Positions 1,792 through 18,213 are shown, numbered from the stretch's first letter. The stretch: 19,865 nt of DNA from Deltaproteobacteria bacterium (GCA_002753725.1 PEAL01000065.1:1-19865), one strand, 5' to 3'. The notes: generated from the letters alone by a model not told the origin. Numbers and translations are program-made.

Positions 1792-1816
1792 TTATTCCTT
1801 ATTCCTTATTCCTTAT
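1792..1816. repeat. Heptamer tandem repeat (ttattcc)x3.5, which is (ggaataa)n on the minus strand
   Basis: ttattcc occurs at 1792-1798, 1799-1805 and 1806-1812, followed by a partial ttat. On the minus strand this gives TAA in all three frames within 17 nt; the first (1808-1806) is the giant gene's stop. It also gives three AAGGA Shine-Dalgarno-like motifs ahead of the small ORF. Confidence 0.8.
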
Positions 1817-4800
1817 AAAAAATGATGGCTTCGGCACGCCGATTTTTTAGTTTTCCTTCTGGCGTTACATTTTCTGTAATGGGGCGTGTCTCGCCATAAC
1901 CTTTAGATGTCAGTCGCTGGGATGATATGTTAAAGGTTTTAATCAGATATGTTCGGATATAATCCGCGCGTTGCTGTGAAAGCTCTACATTTTTATCTTC
2001 ATCGCCGGAATTATCTGTATGTGCTTCAATCGTCGCATAAACATCAGGATACTGATTTAATAATTTTCCCAGAGCATTGATACGAGCATGGCTGATGGGT
2101 TTAATGGCTGATGCATAAAAATGAACATTTAAATCATAATGAAGCGATGTGTCTGATGTTGTCAGTTGTGCAAAGGCTGATTGAACAGGGGTTACATTAC
2201 CTGCCCGATCTCGTGCCTGGAGATGAATAAACCATCGGCCATCTTTTTGCGAGAGTGTCGTTTGGGTGATGGATTGAAAGTCACCCGATGGTATGGATGT
2301 CGGTTTTTGATCAATAACATATCGATAGTGAATGATTGGATCATTATCTTTCGCATGCCATGTCCATTGTTTTATTTTTTGAGGAATAATGTCATTAATC
2401 ATTGTATCAAAAACAGGAGGTGTATTATCCAATAATGCAGATACTGTATATACTTCACTGATATTCCCGGCCCTGTCCGTTGCCTGTACATGAATGTATC
2501 TTTTGCCATCACCCTCTGATATTTCAGCGGTATGATGGTCTTTAAAAGGCCCTGATGGCACTGAGATTTCCGATGAGTTGATGACCCATCGAAATGTGAC
2601 CTGTTGATCCATATCTGTAGCATTCCACGACCAGGTTTTCCTTTGTAAGGGTACAGGATCATCCTGAAGTCCATTAATCATCGGTTTTTGATTATCAATT
2701 ATTGCGGATACTGTTTTTACAGCACTGATATTTCCAGCGCGATCCTGTGCTTGTACATGAATATACCATCGCCCATTAACATCAGATAAGTGAGCCTGAA
2801 ATACAGGGCTAAAAACAGTTGATGGTGACGTTTCAGGTTTCTGATCAATATGATATCGGTACAAGATATTAGAATCAGCATCCCTGGCGGTCCATGACCA
2901 TTGAATCTGCTTTTGGGGAATCAAATGGTCTGCCAGACCTTCTATTTCCGGAGGAATCCTATCCAATATTGCGTAAACTGTTTTCGTGGCACTGACATTC
3001 CCAGCCCGGTCTTTGCCCTGGATATGAAAATACCAGACACCATTCGCATTGGAGAGGCCTGTTTCATTTGTGTGCGTAAAAGAACCTGTTGGCTCAGCAT
3101 CTGAGCGTTGATCAAGAAGCCATCGATAAGCAATCTGTTCATCATCATCGTTGGCGCGCCATTGCCATTGTTTGGATTGAACAGGTGTATCGTCATTTGA
3201 AAGGTGAGTGATTACGGGTGGTTTGTTATCTAACACACAATGGACAGTCAATACATTACTGATATTAAACGCCCTGTCTTGTGCCTGAACATGAAGATAA
3301 AACAAACCATTTTCATTTTCAAGCCGTGCTTGGGTTATTTGTGAGAATTGATTTTTCGGTACAGTGTAAGCATTTTGGTCAATGATATATCGATATTGAA
3401 TAAAGAGATCGTTATCTTTAGCGCTCCATTGCCATTGTTTGGATGTTGAAGGGGTGGTATCACTGGCAAGTTGTATTAGAATCGGTGGCTCATTATCCAA
3501 AATTGCTGAAACAGTTTTGACAGAACTTAGATTTCCTGCATAATCTTTCGCCTGAACATGTAAATACCATGTGCCATCTTTATCCGCGATGCGTGCCTTT
3601 GTGATATTTTTGAATAGGCCTGTTGGTATGGACTCAAAATTTTGATCAATAACATATCGATATCGAACATCAGTATGGGCATCATGGCTGTTCCAGTGCC
3701 ATTCTTTTTGTTGATGAGGAACTTTATCATCTTCCAGTCCAAAAATCTTTGGCGATTGATTATCCAATATGGCCACCGCTGTGGTAACCGGACTGATATT
3801 CCCTGCCTGATCTTTTGCCTGAATATGAATATACCATTTTCCATTGGATTGTTTCAACGTGGCTTGAGAGATATTCGTGTATTCTCCAGTTGGCACAGAA
3901 TCAGATGTCTGATCAATGGTATATCGATACAAGCATGACACTTCATTGGCAGCATCCCACGACCAGACCTTTTTTTGAACGGGAGTAAGATAATCAGTAA
4001 TGCCTGTGATTATGGGAGATGAACGATCGATGATTGCAGACACAGTCACGATATCACTCAAATTTCCAGCACGATCCCGTGCCTGTACATGGAGGTACCA
4101 CGTCCCTTCACCATTGGACAATTCACATGAATGATGATCGGTAAATGAGGTTGTTGGAATACCATTTGCCAATTGATCGACCTGATAGCGATATTGAGTA
4201 TATGAGTCATTATCCTCAACCTGCCATTGCCAATGGATGGTTTGTGCTGGTATTAAAACGTTATTCAAGCCGGTTATGACCGGAAGGGTAGTGTCTATCA
4301 CGATAGAAGCAGTGACAACATCACTGATATTATTCGCTGAGTCTCTGGCCTGTACATGAATAAACCAGAGCCCCTCCGTGTGGGACAGGCTCGCCTGGTT
4401 GATGGAATTAAACGAACCGGTTGGTTGTGATCGTTGTTTTTGATCAATGGAATATCGATAGTAAATGTTTGCATCAGTATCTTTGCCATACCATCTCCAA
4501 GTATGTGATTTCATAGGCTGATGAATATCTGAAAGCCCTGAAAGACTTGGGGCTGTACGATCAATAATGGCTGAAACGGTTTTGATGGGACTCAAATTAC
4601 CGGCGGTATCTTTAGCCTGTATGGATAAATAAAACACGCCTTCACCATCAGAAAAACTAACGGTATTGGTATAAGCAAACGTACCCGATGGTTTAATTTC
4701 AGGATGTTGTGTAATCACATAACGATACATCACATGAGGATCATCATCTCTTGCACGCCATGACCATTTTTTTTGCTGTGTTGGAATGGGATCAACGTTG

Positions 4801-7800
4801 ATATCCACTATTTCAGGGGCAATAGTATCCAGTCTGGCAGAGACAGTGACCACATTACTTACATTATCCGCCCTGTCCCTGGCCTGAACATGTAAATAGA
4901 ATATGCCATGATTATTGGAAATCTCTGCATATGTTATATCTGAAAAAGGACCAGAAGGTGTATATTGCTCAAAAGGGTTGATCGCATATCGATACATCAG
5001 TTCTGTATCCTGATCCTTTCCATGCCATATCCATTTTTTTTGGCTGACAGGGTTTATATCACTGGATAAGCCTTCAATGGTTGGAGGAATCGTATCAAAA
5101 TTTGCCCATACTGTTTGGGATGTGCTGATATTGCCAGCCCGGTCTTTTGACTGAACGTGAAGGAACCATCGGCCATTAATATTCTTTCCTGTAAAACAGG
5201 TCGTGGTATCAAAATCAGTTGAAAATTGTGCCTCGGAATGTTGAGTGAACGAATAACGCGATTTTACGCCGCTATCCTGATCAATTAATTGCCAGGCCCA
5301 TTGTTTGGACTGAACAGGATATGCAACAGAGGATAGCCCTTTTATTACAGGAGGAGTATTATCAAGAATACTTGACACTGTAACGATTTCACTGGTATTC
5401 CCAGCGCGATCCAGTGCCTGAACATGAATAAACCATGTCCCTTCAGCATTAGATAGATGAGCAGAGGTCACATGGGTAAAGGATGTTGTGGGGGATGCAT
5501 CGGCACGTTGATCGATAATATAGCGATGCAATACGTCTGGATCATTATCCAGGGTTGCCCATGTCCATGATTGATTCCTGACTGGATACAGATTATCTGT
5601 AAGTCCGATAATTTCAGGCGGGGTGTTGTCAATGATTGCAGAAACTGTGATGTGTTCACTAAGATTTCCTGCCTGATCTTTTGCCATAACATGCAAATAC
5701 CAGATGCCATCACCTTCTTCAATCGTGGCCTTGGCTTCTGGTTTGAATTGTCCAGATGGCGGTGCATCTTTATTTTGATCGATAGAAAATTGATAACTGA
5801 CGGTTTCATCCAAAGGTTCAGAATACCATGTCCATTTTTTCTGGTGTTTAGGTATAGAATCGTTTGAAAGCCCTTTAATGATTGGTGCTGTGTTATCCAA
5901 AATGGCTGAAACGCGAATTATTTCACTCAAATTGCCAGCACGGTCTTTTGCTTGAAGAAAAAGATAGCACATCTGATTTTCACCAGAGATTTCAACAGAT
6001 GTTTCATGCGTGTAAGAGCCGAACGGTTGTTTCTCAAGCGTTTTACTGATAGCATACCGATAGTCAAGGTATGGATCAGCATCATGGCCTTTCCATTGCC
6101 ATTTTTTTCTTTGTGTGGGAACGGGGTCATCATCTAACCCACTAATAACCGGGGCTGTGTTGTCCAGCAATTCAGAAACAGTGGCAACATTACTTTCATT
6201 TCCTGCGCGATCAATGGCCTGAACATGCAAATACCATCGGCCATCACCACTGGATATCGATGCCGTGTTCGTATATTGATAATTACCATCAGGTAAGGCG
6301 TTTTCATTTTGGGTGATTAAATACCGGTATACAATTTGGTGATCAGCGTCTTTTGCCTGCCAGTTCCATTTTATTTTTTTTACAGGATGCATTACAGGAG
6401 ATAATCCCGTGACTACCGGCTTTGTTGTATCGATGAGAGCTTTCACTGTAACCACAGAACTTAAATTGCCAGCAGTATCTTGTGCCTGTACATGGAGATA
6501 CCAAAGACCATCCGTTTCATAAATGGGTGTTGAATGAATCGTTGAAAAAATTCCCAATGGTTTGGAATCATAGAATTGATCAATTAAAATTCGAAAGCGA
6601 ACAGTGGGGTCAGCATCTTCTGCATGCCAAGAAAAAGATTTACTTCTTACCGGCGTTACTTCCCTGTCATCAGAAAGCCCCTTAATAACAGGCGGTAATT
6701 GATCCAACAGACAATATACATGATAAACCTTACTGAGATTGCCTGCCCAGTCTTTTGCCTGAACATGAAGATACCACCGCCCATCGACATCTTTAATTGT
6801 TGCGGTAGTTGTTTTTTTAAATTCTGTTTCAATGAGGGACTGTTCTTTCTGGTCAATGGTATACCGAAATGTCGCATTTTCATTTGAATGGGTTTTCCAG
6901 GCCCATATTTTCTGTTTTTTAGGAACGGAATCATTTTCAATACCCACAATTCTGGGAGGCACATTATCCAGAACCACAGAGACCGTGACAACATTGCTGA
7001 GATTTCCGGCGCGATCTGTTGCCTGAACATGGAGATAGCATAAGCCTTCAATATCTTTGGCAATCGCAGAATGTGTTGAATTAAACGGTCCTTCAGGTTT
7101 TGAATCAGGATGATGATCGATCAAATACCTGAAAAGAATAGTGGTATCATCATCCTTTGCTGACCATGTCCATCGTTTAACTGTTGTGGACGTTAATGAA
7201 TCAGACAGGCCGATAATTATTGGCGCTGTGGTATCAAGAATTGTCTGGACAGTGACAGTATTGCTTTCATTGCCTGCTGTATCGCATGCCTGAAGATGTA
7301 GATACCAGATACCATCATCATAATAATTTTTATCCAGTTGAATCATGCGGGTGAATGTATATGCACCTTTTGGATGAGAATCGGCAAACTGATCGACAAG
7401 ATATCGAAACCGAACATTGGGGTCAGCATCGTTTGCTGATAGCATCCATTTTTGTATGGACACTGGCGTAATCGAATGAGCAATATCATTAATGAGTGGT
7501 GGTATGGTGTCAATTGTAATGGATAACAACTCAGAAATACTGATATTTTCATCACTCTGGGTTTGATAATGTGCAGATAATTCATGTGTCCCTTCAGTCA
7601 AATCAATGTTAAACTGAAAAATATCTGCTGTGATGACTGTCGTTGCCCCTGATAAAGCATTTCCATCAACAAGAAGAACCACTGTCTGGTCGATATCTCC
7701 GAATCCTTGAATGTGTAAATTTTTAGATTGGCGGGTGATCCTATCGGTATTGAAAAAACCTGTATCATGTTCAGGTTCCAAGGATAGATTATATGGTTTT

Positions 7801-8693
7801 GGGTAGTGTGAATAAATGCCTTCTCCCCAGAAAATGTCAGCATGTTCTGTTTTATTCACCGCATTTTGTTTATTTCGAATATTGGTATACGCAATTGAAA
7901 TGGCATTGGAATCAGCATATTCAGACAAATAAATTTCATAGGGCATTTGTTCATTCCACAACGTTGCATGCGTCATAGTAAGAGAAGAATGATAAGCAAA
8001 AATGGCAGAGGAAACAGGGGCATCATTAACGGGGTGATTTTGGGTTAAAACCGTGCGAAATATATTTATCGTTGATTTTTGGGCGTAAATGGCTATTCCG
8101 GAAGTGGCTTTATTGTTCATCAATGTGACATTCGATAAGATCATATCTGAACCCTGACAATATATCCCTGCACCTGAACTGTTTGCTGTATTATGGACAA
8201 TGGCTGTTTGAGTGAGAGTCATGTTAGCGTACACGCAATATATACCACCGCCTTGTTCTGCGGTATTTTCTTTGATAATGACATTCACGAATTGAGGTGA
8301 TGCACCTCTGCAATAGACCCCTCCGCCGAGGTAAAAGGATTTTATGTCAGCTTTTCCATTGATGAGCGAAACATTACTGATGTGCGTTTTTTGATCCACA
8401 ATACCACCCAATGATTCATCAAAAAGCAACACACTTGAACGTTGGCAGCCATCAATGATTGTCTTGTTCTTGTCTTCACCAGACAGCTGAATGCCATTGA
8501 CTTTTGGCCATATAATATTTTCACGATAATTCCCATTTTTAATCAAAATGGTATCGTTGGATGTTGCAGAATTCAATGCTTGCTGGATGGTTTTAAAATC
8601 CGCTGGTACATGTAACATACGTGCATATGTGATTGAACATGCAAATAATAAAAAAAGAATACAAAATAAATATGGTTTAATGCTTGTTCTCAT
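1806..8693 (-). CDS. Giant (2295 aa) envelope or surface protein with four parts: lipoprotein-type signal, Pmp-like parallel beta-helix, 20 Ig-like tandem repeats, C-terminal OmpA-like peptidoglycan-binding domain
   Basis: - **Start:** chosen at M38 of the ORF-track frame (ATG 8693-8691), 11 nt after the upstream gene's stop. The resulting N-terminus is MRTSIKPYLFCILFLLFAC, with lipobox L-F-A-C.
- **aa ~62-335:** GGGVYC/GGGIYC/GAGIYC alternating with (I/V/L)xxNxA, the GGA(I/L/V)+FxxN pattern of polymorphic-outer-membrane-protein / PbH1 beta-helix repeats.
- **aa ~360-436:** an Ig-like module.
- **Repeat array:** 20 repeats (see the repeat feature).
- **C-terminus (nt ~1809-2126):** IEAHTDNSGDEDKNVELSQQRADYIRTYL...GYGETRPI...NRRAEAIIF, which matches the OmpA_C-like signature (TD..G....N..LS..RA..V..YL / G.G...P / NRR.E). 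Confidence 0.93.
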   Translation of the reverse strand: MRTSIKPYLFCILFLLFACSITYARMLHVPADFKTIQQALNSATSNDTILIKNGNYRENIIWPKVNGIQLSGEDKNKTIIDGCQRSSVLLFDESLGGIVDQKTHISNVSLINGKADIKSFYLGGGVYCRGASPQFVNVIIKENTAEQGGGIYCVYANMTLTQTAIVHNTANSSGAGIYCQGSDMILSNVTLMNNKATSGIAIYAQKSTINIFRTVLTQNHPVNDAPVSSAIFAYHSSLTMTHATLWNEQMPYEIYLSEYADSNAISIAYTNIRNKQNAVNKTEHADIFWGEGIYSHYPKPYNLSLEPEHDTGFFNTDRITRQSKNLHIQGFGDIDQTVVLLVDGNALSGATTVITADIFQFNIDLTEGTHELSAHYQTQSDENISISELLSITIDTIPPLINDIAHSITPVSIQKWMLSANDADPNVRFRYLVDQFADSHPKGAYTFTRMIQLDKNYYDDGIWYLHLQACDTAGNESNTVTVQTILDTTAPIIIGLSDSLTSTTVKRWTWSAKDDDTTILFRYLIDHHPDSKPEGPFNSTHSAIAKDIEGLCYLHVQATDRAGNLSNVVTVSVVLDNVPPRIVGIENDSVPKKQKIWAWKTHSNENATFRYTIDQKEQSLIETEFKKTTTATIKDVDGRWYLHVQAKDWAGNLSKVYHVYCLLDQLPPVIKGLSDDREVTPVRSKSFSWHAEDADPTVRFRILIDQFYDSKPLGIFSTIHSTPIYETDGLWYLHVQAQDTAGNLSSVVTVKALIDTTKPVVTGLSPVMHPVKKIKWNWQAKDADHQIVYRYLITQNENALPDGNYQYTNTASISSGDGRWYLHVQAIDRAGNESNVATVSELLDNTAPVISGLDDDPVPTQRKKWQWKGHDADPYLDYRYAISKTLEKQPFGSYTHETSVEISGENQMCYLFLQAKDRAGNLSEIIRVSAILDNTAPIIKGLSNDSIPKHQKKWTWYSEPLDETVSYQFSIDQNKDAPPSGQFKPEAKATIEEGDGIWYLHVMAKDQAGNLSEHITVSAIIDNTPPEIIGLTDNLYPVRNQSWTWATLDNDPDVLHRYIIDQRADASPTTSFTHVTSAHLSNAEGTWFIHVQALDRAGNTSEIVTVSSILDNTPPVIKGLSSVAYPVQSKQWAWQLIDQDSGVKSRYSFTQHSEAQFSTDFDTTTCFTGKNINGRWFLHVQSKDRAGNISTSQTVWANFDTIPPTIEGLSSDINPVSQKKWIWHGKDQDTELMYRYAINPFEQYTPSGPFSDITYAEISNNHGIFYLHVQARDRADNVSNVVTVSARLDTIAPEIVDINVDPIPTQQKKWSWRARDDDPHVMYRYVITQHPEIKPSGTFAYTNTVSFSDGEGVFYLSIQAKDTAGNLSPIKTVSAIIDRTAPSLSGLSDIHQPMKSHTWRWYGKDTDANIYYRYSIDQKQRSQPTGSFNSINQASLSHTEGLWFIHVQARDSANNISDVVTASIVIDTTLPVITGLNNVLIPAQTIHWQWQVEDNDSYTQYRYQVDQLANGIPTTSFTDHHSCELSNGEGTWYLHVQARDRAGNLSDIVTVSAIIDRSSPIITGITDYLTPVQKKVWSWDAANEVSCLYRYTIDQTSDSVPTGEYTNISQATLKQSNGKWYIHIQAKDQAGNISPVTTAVAILDNQSPKIFGLEDDKVPHQQKEWHWNSHDAHTDVRYRYVIDQNFESIPTGLFKNITKARIADKDGTWYLHVQAKDYAGNLSSVKTVSAILDNEPPILIQLASDTTPSTSKQWQWSAKDNDLFIQYRYIIDQNAYTVPKNQFSQITQARLENENGLFYLHVQAQDRAFNISNVLTVHCVLDNKPPVITHLSNDDTPVQSKQWQWRANDDDEQIAYRWLLDQRSDAEPTGSFTHTNETGLSNANGVWYFHIQGKDRAGNVSATKTVYAILDRIPPEIEGLADHLIPQKQIQWSWTARDADSNILYRYHIDQKPETSPSTVFSPVFQAHLSDVNGRWYIHVQAQDRAGNISAVKTVSAIIDNQKPMINGLQDDPVPLQRKTWSWNATDMDQQVTFRWVINSSEISVPSGPFKDHHTAEISEGDGKRYIHVQATDRAGNISEVYTVSALLDNTPPVFDTMINDIIPQKIKQWTWHAKDNDPIIHYRYVIDQKPTSIPSGDFQSITQTTLSQKDGRWFIHLQARDRAGNVTPVQSAFAQLTTSDTSLHYDLNVHFYASAIKPISHARINALGKLLNQYPDVYATIEAHTDNSGDEDKNVELSQQRADYIRTYLIKTFNISSQRLTSKGYGETRPITENVTPEGKLKNRRAEAIIFYKE
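2163..7496 (-). repeat. 20 tandem, diverged ~89-aa (~267-bp) coding repeats inside the giant gene
   Basis: Each unit carries W-x-W...D-x-D...(Y/F)-R-Y...D-Q...P-x-G...G-x-W-(Y/F)-(L/I)-H-(V/I)-Q-A-x-D-x-A-G-N-x-S...(L/I)-D-N-x-P-P-x-I-x-G-L. I counted 20 occurrences of the HVQA.D.AGN core (e.g. WYLHVQAKDWAGNLS, WFIHVQARDSANNIS). The D.AGN...V.V.D..PP.I ending resembles HYR/bacterial Ig-like beta-sandwich repeats, but I cannot assign the exact family by eye. The copies are diverged at the DNA level, so this is not a recent amplification. Confidence 0.9.
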
Positions 8694-8704
8694 GTTCTGT
8701 CCAT

Positions 8705-10858
8705 TTAATTGACGACAATCGAATAAAAATAATAAAAATAACCTGCTATCATAAAAAGAGATAAAAAAAGTCCTGTACATTTTACTCTTGGTATTGCCTG
8801 ACAAAAGCCTTTTCGATTCAAGCCGGCAATAATAAGTGTCAACACAAATGAAAGGCCTGTCATAAGGTAAAGAAGAATAAACCAGTGATCAAATGGGATA
8901 AGATAATCAACAGATATTTCAGACAGGAAGTAATATAAGAACGATACCACTCCCAGGCATGACAGATGGGCAAACATCGCAATCAGTGTATGGGAAGGAA
9001 TGATGAATAAAAGGCAGGATAAAAGACCCATAATAATGCATCCAGGAACAAAACATCGCAACCACTGATGAAAAGAATCTCGATGAATAAGGATTTGAAT
9101 TCTATAATCCGGGTTATGTTCTTGATTAAATTGCGAATAATCAACCTTAGGTTGCGTTGTCATGCCATAAGCATAGCAGCGATTCAGTTTCCAGTTGGAA
9201 AGGTTAAATCGATCATTGTCATTGAGACTGATTTCTTTGTTAATATATCTCATTTCATTACTTTTTAATGTATTATGATAAAAATGAATACCTAACTTTT
9301 GTTTATCAAAAGGGTATGTATGGTACAAAAAATTTATCTTAAAGGATCCCTTAATGCTGTATTTTTTATACAAGACACCATCAAGGGTTCCACTTTCAAC
9401 AGGATCGTCTAAAACAACAGGTGTTGTTGCATTTAAAAAGCAAATATCTGCGGGGTCGATTACCGGGGTGTCATACAAGAATGTCAGAAAAAAATGAGCC
9501 GTAAAGAACGATTCTTTTATATCCAGTTCAACGATTTCAGTTTTTACCTGAACAATCGATACGTGTTGAATATCTGATTCATAAGGATTTGTATGGTTTA
9601 ATTTAGATTTCATGTCCATCAGAAACTGTTGGTGAAAAGGAACAAGTACCCCTTTTTGATAGTGACCCAGACCTGTATTTTTTATTGCATTTCCATTATC
9701 ATCAAAAAAGATATCACCGCAGATTCCTTTAAAAGCATAATCAGGTTTCTTTATATCGGTAAGAAAATTTTTTATTTGACGTCTGTACTGGTAAGATCGT
9801 GCAGTGGGGTCAATTTCCATTTTTCTAAGAATATCTGCCATCAGAAGTGTGGCATCATAATAATTTGTTGCAATAGACGATGGAACGTTACGATATTTTT
9901 CATAATAGGCCTTAAAAAAGTCTACAGATTGAGAATTAAACAAATAATTCGCAAAGATATCATTTGCAGTTGTGAAAACACCATCTGAATAATAACCAGG
10001 AATTGATTTTTCCAGGGCAATTGTTCGTAATTCGTTTTGAAACGATTCATATGAAAATACATGACCATTGGTTATAAAAAAGTGAGGATCAAAAGCGTTT
10101 AATTTTTCAATAATCTGAACAGCCAGGCGATCAGATGTTGCAATAAAAACAGAGCTTTTTGCTTTAGATGTTTTAAACATTCTAACGATGGTTTGCAGTT
10201 GTGGATAAATATTTTTTTCTTCATCAATATCAATTGTATTTTCAATTTTAATGCCGTTATTTTTGAAAAAATTCATATATGTATTTTTGATATCACGACT
10301 ATAAATATCTTTAGATGCAATAATGGTTACAGGTGACCATTTACAATACTGCTTTGAAAACATAGCCAGAAATGTTGCCTGATGGAGAGAGGATGGTATG
10401 GATCGAAAATACCATTCATTGTTTAATGTAACATTCGTTGCTGGTGCTGAGGCGGTAATCGCGGGGATACCTTCTTTTAAATAAACCTGCCCGGCAGAAA
10501 AACTGGCAGCGCTGCTATAATGCCCAATAACAAAAAGCAGATGGTCATTTCTTGAGAATGAATTGGCAACTTTCATGGCAAGATTGGTTTTATTCATGTC
10601 ATCTTTATAGATATATTTCAATTTTTTACCATCAATACCGCCATTTGCATTGATTTTTTCTATACATAAATCAATACCCCGAAGCATTTCTTTGCCATAT
10701 TCTTCATCCGCCCCACTGAATGGGCCTGCAACACCAAACAGGCACACATCTTGATCACTGTGATAGATATCAAATACACTCAATAGTAGTAGTATACCGA
10801 TAAACAGTATCACAATTAAAATAATCAATAGGCCTTTATTTAAAATGAATTGTTTCAT
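8705..10858 (-). CDS. Type-I periplasmic binding protein (LivK/ANF-receptor-like) fused to a pentameric ligand-gated ion channel (Cys-loop superfamily) module: paralogue A, 717 aa
   Basis: - **N-terminus:** signal anchor LLIILIVILFIGILLLLSVF.
- **aa ~38-410, PBP-I motifs:** FGVAGPFSGADEEYGKEMLRGIDLCIEKINANGGIDGKKL, FVIGHYSSAAS, IPAITASAPATNVT, EWYFRSIP.
- **aa ~432-592, pLGIC extracellular-domain pattern:** IVQVKTEIVELDIKESFFTAHFFLTFLYD, CFLNA, and the signature loop YPFDKQKL (nt 9293-9316).
- **Transmembrane part:** IHRDSFHQWLRCFVPGCII (pre-M1 Arg plus M1 Pro) and four TM helices with a very short M3-M4 loop, including an IPFDHWF M3 start. Confidence 0.85.
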   Translation of the reverse strand: MKQFILNKGLLIILIVILFIGILLLLSVFDIYHSDQDVCLFGVAGPFSGADEEYGKEMLRGIDLCIEKINANGGIDGKKLKYIYKDDMNKTNLAMKVANSFSRNDHLLFVIGHYSSAASFSAGQVYLKEGIPAITASAPATNVTLNNEWYFRSIPSSLHQATFLAMFSKQYCKWSPVTIIASKDIYSRDIKNTYMNFFKNNGIKIENTIDIDEEKNIYPQLQTIVRMFKTSKAKSSVFIATSDRLAVQIIEKLNAFDPHFFITNGHVFSYESFQNELRTIALEKSIPGYYSDGVFTTANDIFANYLFNSQSVDFFKAYYEKYRNVPSSIATNYYDATLLMADILRKMEIDPTARSYQYRRQIKNFLTDIKKPDYAFKGICGDIFFDDNGNAIKNTGLGHYQKGVLVPFHQQFLMDMKSKLNHTNPYESDIQHVSIVQVKTEIVELDIKESFFTAHFFLTFLYDTPVIDPADICFLNATTPVVLDDPVESGTLDGVLYKKYSIKGSFKINFLYHTYPFDKQKLGIHFYHNTLKSNEMRYINKEISLNDNDRFNLSNWKLNRCYAYGMTTQPKVDYSQFNQEHNPDYRIQILIHRDSFHQWLRCFVPGCIIMGLLSCLLFIIPSHTLIAMFAHLSCLGVVSFLYYFLSEISVDYLIPFDHWFILLYLMTGLSFVLTLIIAGLNRKGFCQAIPRVKCTGLFLSLFMIAGYFYYFYSIVVN

Positions 10859-10889: not shown

Positions 10890-13037
10890 TTAAAGCGGAA
10901 AACAACAGTTGACCACATAAAAAGATATCATCATTATCGTAATCAAACATGCTGCCTTTCCCAAAAATTGAACGAACGCCATTGATTGCTTATAATGATG
11001 GATCGATAAGCCTATCAGTCCCATTTGAAACATGATTGTCAACCCAATAAAACCATACAAACACATAAACAGCATTTCAGAGAATGTCAGAAATGGTATG
11101 TGTAATTTGAAATATAAATGGCATACAGTAGTGATCATCAGGAATATGATATTGATCACCAATGAAATTTTTATTCGATGCACAGGACAAAAATAACTGA
11201 TCGATGTCAGTAGAAAAAGAATAAGACAGGCAATAAAAATAAGCTTTTCCTGCTGATTCAGGCGCCTTTGAATATGAATATCAACAGCGAATTCAGATGC
11301 GTTATTCTTAATATCTCCTGACAATGGGCTTTTTATTAAATAAGGCATCGCGTCCACAGATAGCCATGTTTCAGAATTCAATTTAAAACTTATTTTATTT
11401 AGCTGATCAATAGCAAATATAAACGTGTTTGTGTTTACGCTTGTATCCCGAAAACTTATGGTCAGTTTTTGGCTGTCTATGGGATATCGTTTAAGGTCAA
11501 AGTGATGATAAAATACACTATCCACGGTGTATAACAGATGTGTGGTACCTTGTTTATTCATAGTTTTTTTAGGATTTTTCAATACAAGCGGAGAAACAGC
11601 GTTGGTAAATTGAATCCATTCAGGTTGAAAATGCTTTTGAAAACTAAACCAGAGATTAAACCGGGCATGAAATGTACCATCTATCGTATTGATTTGATTT
11701 AATTGAATATCATCTATCCTTACATACACTAATTGTTTTTTGATAAAATAATCATCATTGTTTGCCATAACGTCATTATCTAATGCTTTTTGAATCAAAT
11801 CATTGGAAATATCATTGAGTGAAACAGCGATGTATTGATGAAAGGCGGGAATATAATGGCCCTTGTATAATTGAGTGACAATCATTGACTTTTTCGTTTC
11901 GCCAACACCATTAAAAAATATTTTTCCGGTTAAGCCCTCCACACAGTGATTCCTATCATAGAATGTTTCAAGTGCATTTTTGAATTTTTTTCTGATGTCC
12001 CGGATAGCCCCCTGTATCTCAATTTTTCTTAATGCTTCAATGCTAACATGTGCCAGATCATAAGATGTCGTACTGATTAATGAAGGCGGTACTCCATAAA
12101 AGGTATAATAATTCTTTTCAAAAATTCTATTGATTTGTTTTGAAAAATACTGAGAAAACAACGATACAGAGTAGATACCATTTGAATAAAAACCGGGTGA
12201 GGATTGTTCTTTGGGATACGCTTTGAATCCATCGATAAAAATTTGAGATGCCAAGGAATCTGCGCCCATAATGATTTGATTCAGTTGCTTCTTTTTCAAA
12301 CCAACCACCAATTTTACAGACGTATCAGCGTGGGTTGCCAAAAAAAACATATCAGGTTTTAACGCATGCGTATCAATGGCCTGTACAATAGTATCAACCT
12401 GATCATCCATACTCGTTGAACTCGAATCCAATGGATATTGTTCAACAATCTCAATTCCTTTTTCCAGTGCTTGTTCTGTAAATACTGCTGCTAAATTTTT
12501 ACCATATGCCCCTGTATCATAAACAATCGTTGCGGTTTTAAGATTCAATGCTGATTGTGCGTAAGCAGCAAGAAAATCACTTTGACAGGAATTTGGTGGG
12601 ACAATTCTGAACAACCATTCATTCATAATCGGCAAGTCATCAGATGTTGCTGAACCGGTTATTGATGGAATCATGTTGTTTTCATAAATAGAGGCAGCCG
12701 CAGTGCAGCAGGAACTGAAATAATGTCCCAGAACAAAAAGAATGTCCTTGTTTCGAACAATTTGTTTTGCTGCACCGACAGCGCCTTCTTCGGTGCCTTT
12801 ATCGTCAAAAACAAGCAGCTTGATCTGGCTGCCATGAAGTCCTCCTGAGGCGTTTATTTGATCAATATAGAATTGTACCCCTTTAACCATTTCATTTCCA
12901 TAAAAAGACTGGGAACCACTGAATGTACTCGCAACCGCAATATAAAGCGTTTTCTTGCCATAATACAAATGAATCGTATAAAATATGGAAATCAACATGC
13001 TTATCAGTAAAATTATAATAATATATTTTTTCATCAT
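10890..13037 (-). CDS. Type-I periplasmic binding protein fused to a pLGIC (Cys-loop superfamily) module: paralogue B, 715 aa
   Basis: - **Start:** chosen at M20 of the ORF-track frame (ATG 13037-13035), 2 nt after the upstream TAA (13042-13040). This gives MMKKYIIIILLISMLISIFY.
- **PBP-I motifs:** YIAVASTFSGSQSFYGNEMVKGVQFYIDQINASGGLHGSQIKL, FVLGHYFSSCC, IPSITGSATSDDL, EWLFRIVP.
- **pLGIC part:** LVYVRIDDIQLNQINTIDGTFHARFNLWFSF, QFTNA, HHFDLKRYPIDSQKLTISF (YPIDSQKL at nt 11463-11486), IHIQRR, then four TM helices.
- It is collinear with paralogue A throughout. Confidence 0.85.
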   Translation of the reverse strand: MMKKYIIIILLISMLISIFYTIHLYYGKKTLYIAVASTFSGSQSFYGNEMVKGVQFYIDQINASGGLHGSQIKLLVFDDKGTEEGAVGAAKQIVRNKDILFVLGHYFSSCCTAAASIYENNMIPSITGSATSDDLPIMNEWLFRIVPPNSCQSDFLAAYAQSALNLKTATIVYDTGAYGKNLAAVFTEQALEKGIEIVEQYPLDSSSTSMDDQVDTIVQAIDTHALKPDMFFLATHADTSVKLVVGLKKKQLNQIIMGADSLASQIFIDGFKAYPKEQSSPGFYSNGIYSVSLFSQYFSKQINRIFEKNYYTFYGVPPSLISTTSYDLAHVSIEALRKIEIQGAIRDIRKKFKNALETFYDRNHCVEGLTGKIFFNGVGETKKSMIVTQLYKGHYIPAFHQYIAVSLNDISNDLIQKALDNDVMANNDDYFIKKQLVYVRIDDIQLNQINTIDGTFHARFNLWFSFQKHFQPEWIQFTNAVSPLVLKNPKKTMNKQGTTHLLYTVDSVFYHHFDLKRYPIDSQKLTISFRDTSVNTNTFIFAIDQLNKISFKLNSETWLSVDAMPYLIKSPLSGDIKNNASEFAVDIHIQRRLNQQEKLIFIACLILFLLTSISYFCPVHRIKISLVINIIFLMITTVCHLYFKLHIPFLTFSEMLFMCLYGFIGLTIMFQMGLIGLSIHHYKQSMAFVQFLGKAACLITIMMISFYVVNCCFPL

Positions 13038-13039
13038 AT

Positions 13040-15721
13040 TTAATTCAGTTGCCAATCTTTGATATTCTGTCCACCAAGAGCCATATGAGACCAATTTTTA
13101 ATGCGTGGTTTTATAAGGTAATGGTCGGTTTCATAGAAAATGGGGATTACAAGCGTCTCTCTTTGGGTCAGAATCTCATCGATCATTAAATAATAGTCTT
13201 TTCTTAAATGTAAATTTTTTTCTTTTATGGCTTTATTCAACACATCAGATAATTCTGTATTGATATAACTGTTCTGGCGGCTAAGCTTGTTATATGAATC
13301 AAACAAAAAACTATTGGCATCAGGAAAAGTCGCATACCAGTCAGAAATGAAAATATGAGCCTGTCTGGGATTGTATGAACCAGGTTCTGTAAGACCGATG
13401 ACAGTGGATTGAAGATTCAATCTTTTTTTAAGTAGTAATGAAATCGCTTTGGCAATTTGTTTATGGGAATCATGGATTCCTGAATCAATTAGAATTGCAG
13501 GGCATCCTTTTCCGCCAGGATAGCCCGCTTCGGCTAACATTTTCATGGCATGAGTGGGATGGTAAACAGGCCGTTTCTCCTGACTTGACAGCAATAATAA
13601 ATCAGGGGGTATAAACATTTTCATTGCCTTTTGTTGCCCATGAATGACGAACCTGGTAATAAATGAGCGATCAATAACAGACGCAATGGCTTTTCGTAAC
13701 AAAACATTATCCACAGGGGATTGATTCACATTGAAAAAAAGGCCGGTTGTAGAAAAATTGGTACGTTCTTGATAGTCATGTCGGGTTTCAGGTTGCTTTT
13801 TGACCGAATCAAGAAAACGCGATGGGATGTTTATAAAAGCCCCCCCAAGAATATCCAGTTGATTGTTTTGATACATATGCAAAGCAAGCAGGCTGTTCAT
13901 GATAACGTTATAACGCACTTCCTGAATGGCAACAGTTGAAGCATCATAATAGCGGTCATTTTTTCGTAAAATAATCAAAGAGCCTTTTTCATGACAAGCC
14001 AGTTGAAAGGGACCATTACTGACAATATGTTCAGGGGCTGTCCATTCAGCAGCCCATTTTTGAATCGTTGCCGAAGGCAGAGGGCTGAAAACAGGCAGTC
14101 CGGTGATTGAAGGAAAAAATGCAGCAGGATAGGACAGGATAAAATCAATGGTATAATCATCAATAACGTTGACCCCCAGTTTTGATGCATCTTTGATGAA
14201 TCCTAGATGAATGTCCTGGGCATTTTTGAGTATGAATAAGTGTTTTACATCCGGGCATTGGGTTTCAGGGGTCAAATTTCTAACTATTGCAAATCTCAGA
14301 TCGTGAGCTGTCACCGGCTGTCCGTTTGTCCAGAACACATTTTTTCGCAATTTAAACCGGTAACGATCTAAGGTTTCATTCGGTTCCCAACTCGTGGCAA
14401 AGTCCGGGGAAGACTGATAGGTGTCAGGATGGTATTGAGTCAGGCGTATAAACAATTGCTTTGATAATTCAGTTGTTATTTTATCATGGGCAAGCCCCGG
14501 GTCTAATCGTGAAACATCATTGTTACAAAACCTGTTTATATTGAAAGAATCGACCAGGTCAAAAAAATCATCCTGCTTTTTTTCTTTTCGATTAATAATG
14601 ACAAATTTTCCATCTTCATATTTTTTAAAAAATAAAGCGGATGGCCCGATATTTCCTTGTCGTGTCAGATGATATTGACTTAAAACACCATCCCAATGTT
14701 CCATGAATCTAAGAGTTGTATTTAAAACCATTGGTAAACATGAATTACTTTTTTCCATTGACGTTTTAAGCAAATGAATCAGATCATAACCCCGGGCAGC
14801 AAATGTTTCAGGCTCAACGCCAAAGGCTTGCGTAAAACTGGAAACAAAATCTTGTGTTAATTTTCTGGGAAGTGTGTTGTCAAAGTTGCTTGGGATGATG
14901 GTTCCTTCAGCTTTTTTTCCAGTATTACTCCAAAAATAGCGTGTGTCAATTTCATCGGTGGCCATAATTGGGGTATTGATATTCAACTCTCTCATCTGAT
15001 TTACCACCAATGCTGCGATGTTATCTCTGCATAATAATAAAACAATGTCAAAGGATTCATTTTTTAAATCACTTAAGATATCTCTGAAATTTGTTTCAGA
15101 TCGAGAAAAGGATTGTTGAGATACAATCGCAAGGCCTTTTTGTGTGGCCTCTTCATAAAAAATATCAGCAAGAATCTTACTGGTTTTCTGGCGGTCATTA
15201 AGGATAATAATGCGCTGATAGTGGTTTTGAGAGAAACATTCAGCAATTCTTCTAACATATACTTGATCTGGCATATAATTATTAAAAATATAGGCCCCGC
15301 CATAGCGTAATAAATCCGCCCCTGTAGAAAAAAATAATATGCCAGCTTCTTTGTATACGATTGATGCAGAAATAGCATTTTGAGGACTAAAATGTCCGAT
15401 AACAGCAAAAACATTTTTATTTTTAGCTAATTTTTCTGCAATGCGAATGGATGTTTTTTCATCATCATAATCATAAAACAAAAGCGGTCTGATCCTTTTC
15501 CCCATAACGCCGCCATCGCTGTTTATTTCATCCATAGCCAGTTTAACGCCATGAGCAAACTGTGTGGTAGCAGGGAATGCGTCCACAATTCCAATGAAAA
15601 GATCATCGGTTGATCGGGTCAAATGCTTCATGCGCTCTTCATTGGAAATAACCTTGTTACATGAAAAAAATGTAAGAAGGAGTACAATAAAAGCAAAATG
15701 TAAAACGATGATTGGTTTCAT
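13040..15721 (-). CDS. Probable lipoprotein fusing two solute-binding domains: N-terminal LivK-type PBP-I plus C-terminal family-5 (OppA/DppA/NikA-type) SBP, 893 aa
   Basis: - **Signal:** MKPIIVLHFAFIVLLLTFFSC (Cys21, an imperfect lipobox F-F-S-C).
- **aa ~40-378, PBP-I:** FIGIVDAFPATTQFAHGVKLAMDEINSDGGVMGKRIRPL, FAVIGHFSPQNA.
- **aa ~390-893, family-5 SBP pattern:** LDPGLAHDKITTELSKQLFIRL, SWEPNETLDRYRFKLRKNVFWTNGQPVTAHDLRFAI, VSNGPFQL, LRKNDRYYD.
- It ends 2 nt before the next gene's ATG. Confidence 0.88.
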   Translation of the reverse strand: MKPIIVLHFAFIVLLLTFFSCNKVISNEERMKHLTRSTDDLFIGIVDAFPATTQFAHGVKLAMDEINSDGGVMGKRIRPLLFYDYDDEKTSIRIAEKLAKNKNVFAVIGHFSPQNAISASIVYKEAGILFFSTGADLLRYGGAYIFNNYMPDQVYVRRIAECFSQNHYQRIIILNDRQKTSKILADIFYEEATQKGLAIVSQQSFSRSETNFRDILSDLKNESFDIVLLLCRDNIAALVVNQMRELNINTPIMATDEIDTRYFWSNTGKKAEGTIIPSNFDNTLPRKLTQDFVSSFTQAFGVEPETFAARGYDLIHLLKTSMEKSNSCLPMVLNTTLRFMEHWDGVLSQYHLTRQGNIGPSALFFKKYEDGKFVIINRKEKKQDDFFDLVDSFNINRFCNNDVSRLDPGLAHDKITTELSKQLFIRLTQYHPDTYQSSPDFATSWEPNETLDRYRFKLRKNVFWTNGQPVTAHDLRFAIVRNLTPETQCPDVKHLFILKNAQDIHLGFIKDASKLGVNVIDDYTIDFILSYPAAFFPSITGLPVFSPLPSATIQKWAAEWTAPEHIVSNGPFQLACHEKGSLIILRKNDRYYDASTVAIQEVRYNVIMNSLLALHMYQNNQLDILGGAFINIPSRFLDSVKKQPETRHDYQERTNFSTTGLFFNVNQSPVDNVLLRKAIASVIDRSFITRFVIHGQQKAMKMFIPPDLLLLSSQEKRPVYHPTHAMKMLAEAGYPGGKGCPAILIDSGIHDSHKQIAKAISLLLKKRLNLQSTVIGLTEPGSYNPRQAHIFISDWYATFPDANSFLFDSYNKLSRQNSYINTELSDVLNKAIKEKNLHLRKDYYLMIDEILTQRETLVIPIFYETDHYLIKPRIKNWSHMALGGQNIKDWQLN

Positions 15722-15746
15722 GAAATAATTCTATTGGCTGTGATGA

Positions 15747-16616
15747 TTAATTTTTATCACCATTTGTTTCTGTATTCAGAATTAAAGGCAATCCATTCTT
15801 GCCACTGCCAATAATAATAATTTTTGAATTTTGTGATTCTGCAAGTTTTTCAGTGGCTTTAATCCCTTGCCAATTGAGATATTGTTCTTTATTGAAAAGG
15901 GATGATGCAATGGTGTTCAAATGATCTCGGATACCTTCTGCTTCAATTCTTTTTCGGGTTGCTTCTTTTTTTTCTCGCTCAATAACATAAGTATGGGCTT
16001 CCGCCAGATGTTTTTGTTTGATTTTATTACGAATGGATTCGGCCACTTCTTCAGGAAGTATGATCCCCCGAACAAGAACATCATCAATATTGATATAGCG
16101 TTGAGCGACCTGTTCTATGGCTTTATTGATAGCCTCCACAATTAATTTTCTTCCCGTGGTGTAAACTTCTTCAGCATTCAATGTACCAATAATTTCACGA
16201 ATAACAGCTTCTATTTCAGGAATAATCACCTTATCCGCATACTCCATTCCCACTTGCTGATGTAATACACCAAGAAGTTTATATTCAGGCGCATAGCGAA
16301 TAGAGAGTTTAATATGAACTTGCAAACCATTTTTAGTGAGGACATCCATTTCCGGTTTAATTTCCTGGATACGAACATTATAGACGTACATTTTATCCCA
16401 GGGAAGAATTAAGTGAAGACCTTCTGAATAAACAGAAAGGATATCTGTTCCACCAAAAAAACGACTCCAAAACACCGCTGCTTCACCTGGATAAATATTG
16501 TATACAATCATATTAAACAGGAAAGCAAAGGTCAATAAAGCAATCAAAATGGTCAGAATGAGAGAAAAGGTATAATTTTTTAATTTGATAAAAAAGTTCT
16601 TGAACCTGTTTTTCAT
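15747..16616 (-). CDS. SPFH/Band-7 (prohibitin/HflC-like) membrane protein, 289 aa
   Basis: The start is chosen at M28 of the ORF-track frame (which opens on TTG), giving MKNRFKNFFIKLKNYTFSLILTILIALLTFAFLF, an N-terminal membrane anchor. SPFH core: PGEAAVFWSRFFGG...GLHLILPWDKMYVYNVRIQE...TKNGLQVHIKLSIRY. A charged coiled-coil follows: KQKHLAEAHTYVIEREKKEATRKRIEAEGI. It is the first gene of the minus-strand operon. Confidence 0.88.
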   Translation of the reverse strand: MKNRFKNFFIKLKNYTFSLILTILIALLTFAFLFNMIVYNIYPGEAAVFWSRFFGGTDILSVYSEGLHLILPWDKMYVYNVRIQEIKPEMDVLTKNGLQVHIKLSIRYAPEYKLLGVLHQQVGMEYADKVIIPEIEAVIREIIGTLNAEEVYTTGRKLIVEAINKAIEQVAQRYINIDDVLVRGIILPEEVAESIRNKIKQKHLAEAHTYVIEREKKEATRKRIEAEGIRDHLNTIASSLFNKEQYLNWQGIKATEKLAESQNSKIIIIGSGKNGLPLILNTETNGDKN

Positions 16617-16818
16617 GATAAATTTCTTTTCATGGATGATAATTAAACAGTAAAATGGGGTGGAAATCAATGATTGTATTGTTATTATGAACAGCAAATG
16701 ATAATAACTAAAAAAAAATGAAATGTCTATGAAAAAAAATGAAAGAAAGGGCAGCCATCACAAAGCATATGGCAACAAATCTATAAATCATTACATAAAT
16801 ATATAAAGATGTAGACCA
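16617..16818. promoter_or_regulatory. Divergent intergenic/promoter region between the minus-strand operon and the plus-strand FAD-protein gene
   Basis: A 202-bp AT-rich gap between divergently oriented start codons. Candidate sigma70-like promoter on the minus strand: -35 TTGATT (16670-16665), 17-nt spacer, -10 TTTAAT (16647-16642). A direct repeat aaaaaaaatgaaa occurs at 16711-16723 and 16732-16744, a 21-bp period. Motif-level guess only. Confidence 0.35.
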
Positions 16819-18198: not shown

Positions 18199-18213
18199 AC
18201 AGGTTTTGTAACA

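Follow-up and report, generated by a model that had tools for sequence, protein, structure and literature searches.

Which membrane system would make use of a single lipoprotein that carries two different solute-binding proteins (SBPs) in one chain, when no transporter is encoded beside it? This question is raised by a 19,865-nt stretch of DNA from a Deltaproteobacteria bacterium (GCA_002753725.1, PEAL01000065.1:1-19865; hereafter, the window), in which positions 13040-15721 of the minus strand form an uninterrupted ATG-to-TAA open reading frame (ORF) of 893 amino acids (aa). A sequence-only reading of the window had described the product as a type I periplasmic binding protein (PBP-I) fused to a peptide-type family-5 SBP (SBP5), and had proposed that it binds both classes of ligand on behalf of a neighbouring channel. 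The gene neighbours of this fusion, without transporter genes in the flanks examined, suggest an accessory role beside an SPFH protein and ion channels. We consider it an even call that the fusion serves an SPFH–channel membrane module as an accessory lipoprotein in the periplasm, and is not a receptor for ATP-binding cassette (ABC) import. The parts of such a module would be a prohibitin-like SPFH scaffold, the tandem-SBP lipoprotein, and ligand-gated ion channels of the pentameric type (pLGICs) that are themselves fused to PBP-I domains.

Both halves of the protein correspond to entire SBPs. Pfam placed Peripla_BP_6 (PF13458) at aa 53-367 (E = 5.8e-30; 105.5 bits against a cut-off of 31.7), overlapped by ANF_receptor (64.7 bits against 25.4) and Peripla_BP_5, and SBP_bac_5 (PF00496) at aa 438-810 (E = 2.4e-62; 211.6 bits against 32.4; profile positions 3-361 of 368). 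A sequence search of the PDB aligned query residues 38-375 with residues 8-353 of the 356-residue chain of the PBP-I protein 4mlc (E = 1.6e-39), and residues 389-877 with residues 9-498 of the 517-residue chain of Salmonella OppA (1b05; E = 7e-43); this near-complete chain coverage indicates that both halves are full length. The same search matched the N-half to LivJ (1z15; E = 1.8e-13) and the C-half to OppA3 (9pv8; E from ~1e-61 to 3e-61) and Borrelia OppAIV (4gl8; E = 2.5e-56). We therefore delimit, from the Pfam and PDB (4mlc/1z15) matches, an N-terminal PBP-I domain of LivJ-type fold (aa ~38-377; 14591..15610, minus strand), and a C-terminal OppA/MppA-type SBP5 domain (aa ~393-893; 13043..14545, minus strand) that is followed by the stop codon at 13040-13042. 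NCBIfam also detected OppA-like and LivJ-like similarity, well under every equivalog cut-off; PRK15404 scored 69.6 where 477 is required, and hence the fusion is not an equivalog of PRK15404. The description of one protein with both SBP folds is borne out by Pfam boundaries and PDB matches alike, and the peptides that had been quoted for it (DEINSDGGVMGKRIRPL, AVIGHFSPQNA, KEKKQDD, LDPGLAHD, and SWEPNETLDRYRFKLRKNVFWTNGQPVTAHDL) are all present in the translation. To call the two folds evolutionarily unrelated, as was done at the time, is an overstatement, since type I and type II periplasmic binding proteins are separate structural classes that are generally held to be distantly related.

The N-terminus of the fusion is hydrophobic, and translation and homologue alignment mark it as a probable signal peptide ending at a lipobox-like cysteine, Cys21 (LLLTFFS-C; 15659..15721, minus strand). 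Its own box, F-F-S-C, is non-canonical; among 25 full-length homologues, at least 90% keep Cys21 and most have a canonical L/I/V-S/T/A-A/G-C box, and we infer that the fusion is lipid-anchored at this residue. Between the two domains lies a linker (...NRKEKKQDDFFDLV...; aa ~378-392; 14546..14590, minus strand) that is short and variable, and that is collinear and free of frame breaks in all 25 aligned homologues. We built an AlphaFold2 model from an input alignment of 47 sequences, and its predicted local distance difference test (pLDDT) averaged 89.3, fell below 50 at linker residues 380-385 only, and was mostly above 90 over aa 393-893. The low-pLDDT placement of the linker agrees with the earlier estimate of nt ~14550-14600. 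When the modelled C-half was compared with solved structures by Foldseek, it matched open, unliganded MppA (4toz) and DppE (8azb) with a TM-score of 0.89 and a root-mean-square deviation of 2.8 Å; as modelled, the C-half is a three-lobed OppA fold. Among the solved structures searched with Foldseek, no chain spans both halves.

A trivial explanation would be that an assembly or sequencing error has joined two neighbouring ordinary SBP genes, and nothing speaks for it except the rarity of the architecture. The fusion protein is 99% identical to a deposited protein from a metagenome-assembled genome (MAG) of Candidatus Magnetomorum, a multicellular magnetotactic member of Desulfobacterota, so that the window derives from such a genome, and at least 27 full-length homologues with both Pfam domains share 33-69% identity with it. 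Assemblies from ENA, JGI, Logan, and NCBI contain homologues at 69%, 50-55%, and 33-40% identity that match the fusion in length and are collinear with it at the linker, and the finished chromosome of Desulfonema magnum encodes an orthologous ORF of 918 aa. As the linker is collinear across these orthologues, the stop and restart that would turn the fusion back into two ordinary genes does not apply here. On these grounds we rejected the artefact, which we regard as vanishingly improbable.

The same two-domain combination could be retrieved from databases. Indeed, when 1.84 billion representatives clustered at 50% identity were scanned exhaustively with HMMER, it was found in ~29 clusters at that identity, with the domain order always PBP-I then SBP5. 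In a genome scan for the fusion ORF that used one genome per species, the carriers were Desulfonema magnum, D. limicola, Desulfococcaceae HSG8, Ca. Electrothrix (including E. gigas), and Ca. Moduliflexus, and further carriers were MAGs labelled Desulfatirhabdium and Desulfosudis. Since these ~29 architecture-sharing clusters come from independent assemblies, the fusion family is rare but genuine. Triple fusions of SBP5, PBP-I, and pLGIC, which would have demonstrated contact, were absent from the best 150 representatives, where the long matches are homotypic repeats of SBP5 or PBP-I. These polyproteins (among P0113, P0128, P0130, P0136, and P0248) include four SBP5 copies in proteins of 2,843 and 2,704 aa; the same set holds two SBP5 copies in ~1,200-aa proteins and three PBP-I copies in a 1,188-aa protein.

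Given that the architecture is genuine, its genomic company may indicate what it serves. On the minus strand of the window, a Band_7/SPFH gene is followed after 25 nt by the fusion gene, and then, after 2 nt, by two PBP-I–pLGIC paralogues and an Ig-repeat/OmpA gene. The 2-nt gap had been noted before and holds provided that the next gene begins at ATG 13037, the junction being TAA-AT-ATG. The ORFs of every retrieved locus were sorted into classes by phmmer searches from seed sequences, and the synteny counts cover those 20 non-redundant loci in which the fusion is full length. In all 20, an SPFH gene stands upstream, either immediately or second with a DUF697 gene in between, and DUF697 genes flank most of the loci. 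In ~15 of the 20, including the complete D. magnum genome, the fusion gene is directly followed by one or two PBP-pLGIC genes. The functional link to the channel that the sequence-only reading had drawn is thus backed by conserved synteny, but the most constant partner is the upstream SPFH gene, which it did not mention.

These neighbourhoods also bear on another possibility, namely that the fusion is an orphan dual-substrate receptor, whose N-half would bind amino acids and whose C-half would bind peptides, both to be handed to Liv- and Opp-type permeases encoded elsewhere. Its two halves are complete folds of transporter-associated SBP families, and the database annotation is "ABC transporter substrate-binding protein". 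However, genes for ABC permeases or importer ATPases were found neither in the 19.9-kb window, as had been observed earlier, nor in the annotated 10-kb flanks of six related loci, nor at the D. magnum locus. The conserved neighbours are SPFH, pLGIC, and DUF697 genes instead.

The SPFH protein of the window (15747..16616, minus strand) probably starts at ATG 16616, the listed ORF beginning at TTG 16697. It matches Band_7 (PF01145; E = 6.5e-25; 88.6 bits against a cut-off of 23.6), and its closest solved relatives in a PDB sequence search are prohibitin-2 and prohibitin-1 (E = 1.5e-19), with prohibitin-2 aligned over residues 24-263. A single hydrophobic, transmembrane segment lies at its N-terminus. 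In all 21 SPFH orthologues that segment is preceded by 2-7 Lys/Arg residues and followed by 0-2, which predicts an N-in orientation that would place the SPFH domain in the periplasm, the same compartment as the lipoprotein. Prohibitins face the intermembrane space, which is topologically equivalent to the periplasm.

Downstream, copy 1 of the PBP-I–pLGIC fusion (10890..13037, minus strand) comprises 715 aa from ATG 13037, 2 nt past the stop of the SBP fusion, and its paralogue, copy 2 (8705..10858, minus strand), comprises 717 aa. Both begin with Peripla_BP_6 (E = 9.8e-38 in copy 1 and 1.2e-32 in copy 2), have four hydrophobic segments in their C-terminal 320-340 aa, and contain the Pro-loop motif YP(F/I)DxQKL, as RYPIDSQKL in copy 1 and TYPFDKQKL in copy 2. 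Pfam searches with the full proteins gave no match to Neur_chan_LBD or Neur_chan_memb at E ≤ 0.01, and Neur_chan_LBD was matched in only 4 of 16 channel relatives (best E = 8.9e-5). In PDB searches, the C-terminal 336 aa of copy 1 alone matched sTeLIC and GLIC at E ~6e-6, and a profile of 16 channel C-terminal sequences, copy 2 included (profile A3), matched an ELIC-GABAA chimera (5.7e-19), GLIC (~1e-15; chain residues 75-314), and ELIC (5.6e-15). Judged from these sequence matches, both ~715-aa neighbours are divergent PBP-I–pLGIC fusions. The previous identification of the downstream neighbour as a PBP-channel fusion accords with the profile matches to GLIC, ELIC, and ELIC-GABAA chimeras at E values of 1e-15 to 6e-19. 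PBP-pLGIC genes are often tandem paralogues, as in the window and at loci L003, L009, L010, L019, L021, and L023. On a Moduliflexus-like contig (L001), two further PBP-pLGIC genes lie side by side (13003-15909 and 15962-18523); one of them encodes an 853-aa protein with a C-terminal cyclic-nucleotide-binding domain, and the other a 968-aa protein with a ~250-aa C-terminal extension that has no Pfam match. Such channels would carry regulatory domains inside the cell.

The partners of each half become clearer from genomes in which the halves are encoded separately. Stand-alone homologues of the N-half are PBP-I lipoproteins (30-35% identity; E from 1e-55 to 1e-61) that share a post-cysteine helix motif with the fusion and sit in DUF697–Band_7–PBP-I triads that are not followed by an SBP5 gene or by a channel gene. 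Stand-alone homologues of the C-half are SBP5 lipoproteins (E from 1e-75 to 1e-124) whose genes precede PBP-pLGIC genes by 3-89 nt in Thiomargarita and Ca. Parabeggiatoa, where no SPFH gene is nearby. By Rosetta-stone logic, the separate partners of the two stand-alone halves imply that the fusion unites two modules, one that partners SPFH and one that partners the channel. The orphan-receptor explanation meets a further difficulty here, in that the stand-alone halves again adjoin SPFH or pLGIC genes and not transporter genes. We also considered whether the N-half is a recent duplicate of the PBP domain of a neighbouring channel, and ruled this out, because the N-half matches the adjacent channels' PBP domains at E values of 1e-9 to 1e-18 only, as against 1e-55 to 1e-61 for the SPFH-linked PBP-I proteins.

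Several of the loci collected for this comparison have features of their own. The triads at loci L088-L094 (e.g., L092, 1299-4275) represent an apparently undescribed operon partner of SPFH proteins, comparable with stomatin-NfeD pairs. At L022 (961-3843), a 960-aa protein carries a pLGIC-associated SBP5 at aa 61-557 and an unassigned ~400-aa C-terminal extension, and its gene is followed by a PBP-pLGIC gene; the same MAG has the full PBP-I + SBP5 fusion on another contig (L013). In addition, genes for a nonribosomal peptide synthetase, a methyltransferase, and a sulfotransferase abut the DUF697–SPFH–SBP cluster at L005 (1-7532) and L007 (1-7671), as do phosphopantetheinyl transferase and polyketide synthase genes at L090 (6220-16223). 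This adjacency may be a coincidence, or it may hint at a secondary-metabolite or modified-peptide ligand.

Whether the fusion binds ligands can be approached through its pocket residues. We mapped the N-half on E. coli LivJ, whose sequence was verified to be identical to 1z15, and considered the LivJ residues that serve the alpha-amino and alpha-carboxylate groups of the ligand (Ser79, Ala100-Thr102, Tyr150, Tyr202, and Glu226). In the N-half of the window protein, position 79 is Pro, a 3-residue deletion removes positions 102-103, and positions 150, 202, and 226 (placed by alignments at ~20% identity) are Thr, Arg, and Asp. The N-halves of the Magnetomorum clade have Pro for Ser79, lack the Thr102 loop, and have lost the equivalents of Tyr150 and Tyr202; in other fusions Ser79 and Thr102 persist and the tyrosines are missing, and several stand-alone SPFH-linked PBP-I proteins keep the set of Ser, Thr, Tyr, and Asp. 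The PBP-I domains of the channels keep Ser79, Ser/Ala100, Thr102, Tyr150, and Asp226. In the window, channel copy 1 has a full LivJ-type residue set, whereas copy 2 is degenerate (Pro102, Ser202, and His226). Bacterial pLGICs are assumed to be homopentamers, and the retention of amino-acid-binding residues in copy 1 and not in copy 2 hints at possible heteropentamers with sensing and non-sensing subunits.

The C-half was mapped on Salmonella OppA (1b05) through a HMMER alignment. In OppA, Asp419 holds the peptide N-terminus and Arg413 the C-terminus of a tripeptide; in the window protein, these positions are Thr798 and Ile792, respectively, and both residues are lost throughout the Magnetomorum clade. 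Most relatives keep Arg413, Trp416, and Asp419, and the Electrothrix clade retains Asp419 only. Desulfonema-type fusions and the stand-alone Beggiatoaceae proteins keep His371 and Trp397 in addition to Arg413, Trp416, and Asp419. Since most lineages keep these OppA clamp residues, a peptide co-ligand is likely there, and the family probably originated when a peptide binder was joined to one of amino-acid type, to judge from the residues that have been retained. The Magnetomorum lineage would then have either a different ligand or a protein that works independently of ligand.

These residue states do not sustain the dual specificity for amino acids and oligopeptides that had been proposed, which fails for the window orthologue because the canonical contacts are lost in both pockets. 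They cut both ways for the orphan dual-substrate receptor: the OppA residues Arg413, Trp416, and Asp419 in most relatives are what a peptide receptor would need, but in the window orthologue the ligand-anchoring residues are replaced or deleted in the N-half as well as in the C-half. Taken with the neighbourhoods described above, this makes the orphan receptor improbable in our judgement.

The same losses raise the possibility of a pseudo-receptor, a ligand-independent structural tether in which the SBP folds would act as protein-protein modules that bridge the SPFH assembly to membrane partners without any sensing. Such a role would suit pocket residues that differ among family members, with the strongest degeneration in the clade of the window, as well as invariant alignment columns that are mainly structural Gly, Pro, Trp, and Phe; the Electrothrix clade, moreover, retains the protein without channels. 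Many members and stand-alone relatives, however, keep near-complete OppA- or LivJ-type signatures, which argues for ligand binding, at least ancestrally, and the C-half is predicted to adopt a normal, OppA/MppA-like shape with an open cleft. We consider a purely structural tether unlikely.

Building on the observed architecture, conservation, synteny, and residue states, we favour the accessory role within an SPFH–pLGIC module and can sketch how it might operate. The fusion would be exported and then lipid-anchored at Cys21, after which its N-terminal PBP-I half would bind the periplasm-facing SPFH assembly and its C-terminal SBP5 half would bind the periplasmic part of the adjacent PBP-pLGIC channels. 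These putative physical contacts could tether the channels to an SPFH microdomain, modulate their gating, or both. The primary amino-acid sensor would likely be the channel's own PBP-I domain, given that copy 1 keeps the amino-acid-binding residues. As for the accessory ligand-delivery or co-sensing function that had been suggested at the outset, an accessory role is plausible in light of the conserved synteny, whereas the dual specificity attached to it is unsupported for the window orthologue.

Several points weigh against this proposal. The functional links that it draws all rest on gene order and domain content, and orphan SBP genes that serve distant transporters are common. The link to the channel is not universal, as the Electrothrix clade keeps SPFH and the fusion but has, in place of the channels, two or three DUF697 genes together with one EcsC-DUF697 and one DnaJ-TPR gene. 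In addition, the predicted template modelling score of the AlphaFold2 model (0.61) indicates two confident domains whose mutual orientation is not confident, and thus no fixed inter-domain geometry. The residue assignments at LivJ positions 150, 202, and 226 are less certain than the others, and most carrier genomes are MAGs, with taxon names as labelled in their records.

Elsewhere in the window, a protein with N-terminal TPR repeats and a C-terminal SlipAM barrel, similar to the surface lipoprotein assembly modifier Slam (18214-19716, plus strand; 500 aa), is encoded 2.5 kb from the fusion gene. This proximity would allow the fusion to be a Slam-dependent surface lipoprotein, flipped outward by the barrel so as to scavenge nutrients outside the cell. 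Yet the gene lies on the opposite strand behind an oxidoreductase gene, no Slam-like homologue occurs near the fusion at any other locus, and the conserved partners of the fusion are inner-membrane proteins. We consider surface display very improbable, and the link to the Slam-like gene was dropped as not conserved at other loci. The same-strand run that includes the fusion ends with a gene for a giant protein (1806..8804, minus strand; 2,332 aa) with Ig-like repeats and a C-terminal OmpA peptidoglycan-binding domain (Big_13, E = 8e-45; OmpA, E = 6e-17; plus Big_3_2 and Big_6 repeats). It belongs to the cluster in the Magnetomorum clade only, its homologue at L003 likewise following the second channel gene, and it may be an adhesin or an envelope-spanning component specific to that clade. 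A scan for promoters and terminators found promoter-like sites no more often than in shuffled sequences, and nothing interpretable inside the cluster.

The cluster occurs in Desulfonema, Magnetomorum, Electrothrix, and Moduliflexus, and in split form in Thiomargarita and Parabeggiatoa, a distribution which suggests that its carriers are large or multicellular sulfur-cycle bacteria. A similar phyletic pattern has been reported for the "big bacteria protein" Bbp, and was credited to horizontal transfer among co-occurring giant bacteria (PMC10580974); that paper does not mention the fusion gene cluster. Since some carriers are MAGs of uncertain morphology, the resemblance to Bbp is only one of pattern. 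As a more speculative picture, which we hold doubtful as a whole, the lipoprotein might be the bridge of an undescribed periplasmic signalling machine, in which an SPFH ring would corral heteromeric PBP-I–pLGICs and an assembly like an ionotropic glutamate receptor (iGluR) would be built from separate parts. This machine might have spread horizontally among giant, filamentous, or multicellular sulfur-cycle bacteria (Desulfonema, Magnetomorum, Electrothrix, Thiomargarita, Parabeggiatoa, and Moduliflexus), where it could link cues from peptides or amino acids with ion fluxes for filament or consortium behaviour.

What pLGICs do for prokaryotic cells, and what purpose their additional N-terminal domains serve, are standing questions, and according to a 2025 paper the jelly-roll domain of DeCLIC is the only pLGIC N-terminal domain that has been even partly characterised so far (PMC12664993). 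In this context, the locus supplies conserved candidate auxiliary components for PBP-fused pLGICs, namely the SPFH scaffold, the tandem-SBP lipoprotein, and DUF697 proteins. Contact partners are predicted by the natural split and fused forms, and the system occurs in a cultured organism with a finished genome, D. magnum. If the proposal is right, ion channels would join the receptor classes served by SBPs, and a PBP-I lipoprotein would join the known operon partners of SPFH proteins. Our literature search found no description of a PBP-I + SBP5 fusion, of an SPFH–PBP-I pairing, or of the gene cluster, and nothing on DUF697 with SPFH, or on the cluster through Magnetomorum and ligand-gated channels.

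Compared with known SBPs, each half of the fusion is familiar in fold and unfamiliar in setting. Like the OppA/MppA-type SBPs of cluster C, the C-half has a complete three-lobed fold (as modelled) and matches OppA3 and OppAIV at E values of 1e-57 to 1e-62; unlike them, it stands behind a PBP-I domain, has no oppBCDF genes nearby, and in the window orthologue lacks the equivalents of Arg413 and Asp419. The N-half has the full-length PBP-I fold of the LivJ/LivK-type proteins of cluster B, with the GH motif and the GA loop conserved, but in the window orthologue it has Pro for Ser79, a Thr102 loop shortened by 3 residues, and no equivalents of Tyr150 and Tyr202; it has no livHMGF genes nearby, and finds its closest relatives among SPFH-adjacent lipoproteins. 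SPFH scaffolds offer a similar mixture. As in stomatin-NfeD, HflK/C-FtsH, prohibitin cages, and the regulation of channels by stomatin/MEC-2, the SPFH gene here has a closely associated partner gene, and the predicted periplasmic orientation of the window SPFH protein matches that of HflK/C and the prohibitins. The partner here is a PBP-I lipoprotein, however, and not NfeD or an AAA protease.

PBP-I–pLGIC fusions were first recognised in a computational study of 2005 by Tasneem, Iyer, Jakobsson and Aravind, who also predicted functional cooperation within operons that pair pLGICs with stand-alone type II binding proteins (PMC549065). The locus described here shares with those operons the combination of PBP-I–pLGIC genes and a separately encoded binding protein; it differs in that the latter is a heterotypic PBP-I + SBP5 lipoprotein, accompanied by a prohibitin-like SPFH protein and often by DUF697 proteins and tandem channels. 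That study describes neither such a heterotypic lipoprotein, nor SPFH or DUF697 partners, nor tandem channel paralogues. SBPs are, moreover, established activators of chemoreceptors, sensor kinases, and cyclases (PMC8050422). In those systems, as proposed here, a periplasmic SBP serves a membrane receptor besides or instead of a transporter, the difference being that the receptor here would be an ion channel; the term "ion channel" never occurs in that review, and an SBP-SBP fusion is not mentioned in it. The order of a LIVBP-like type I domain (the amino-terminal domain, ATD) followed by a type II domain (the ligand-binding domain, LBD), tied to a ligand-gated channel, recalls the extracellular region of iGluRs, an analogy that draws in part on PMC549065. 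In iGluRs, both domains lie within the polypeptide of a tetrameric channel and the LBD is of LAOBP/GlnH type, whereas the fusion system has a separate lipoprotein, an OppA-like type II domain, and a pentameric channel; a tandem SBP beside a channel would therefore be analogous to the iGluR ATD-LBD pair, and not homologous to it in detail. Collectively, these comparisons point to the fusion as a variant of the known SBP co-receptor theme within a PBP-pLGIC operon, acting by a mechanism that we infer from its sequence and its neighbours.

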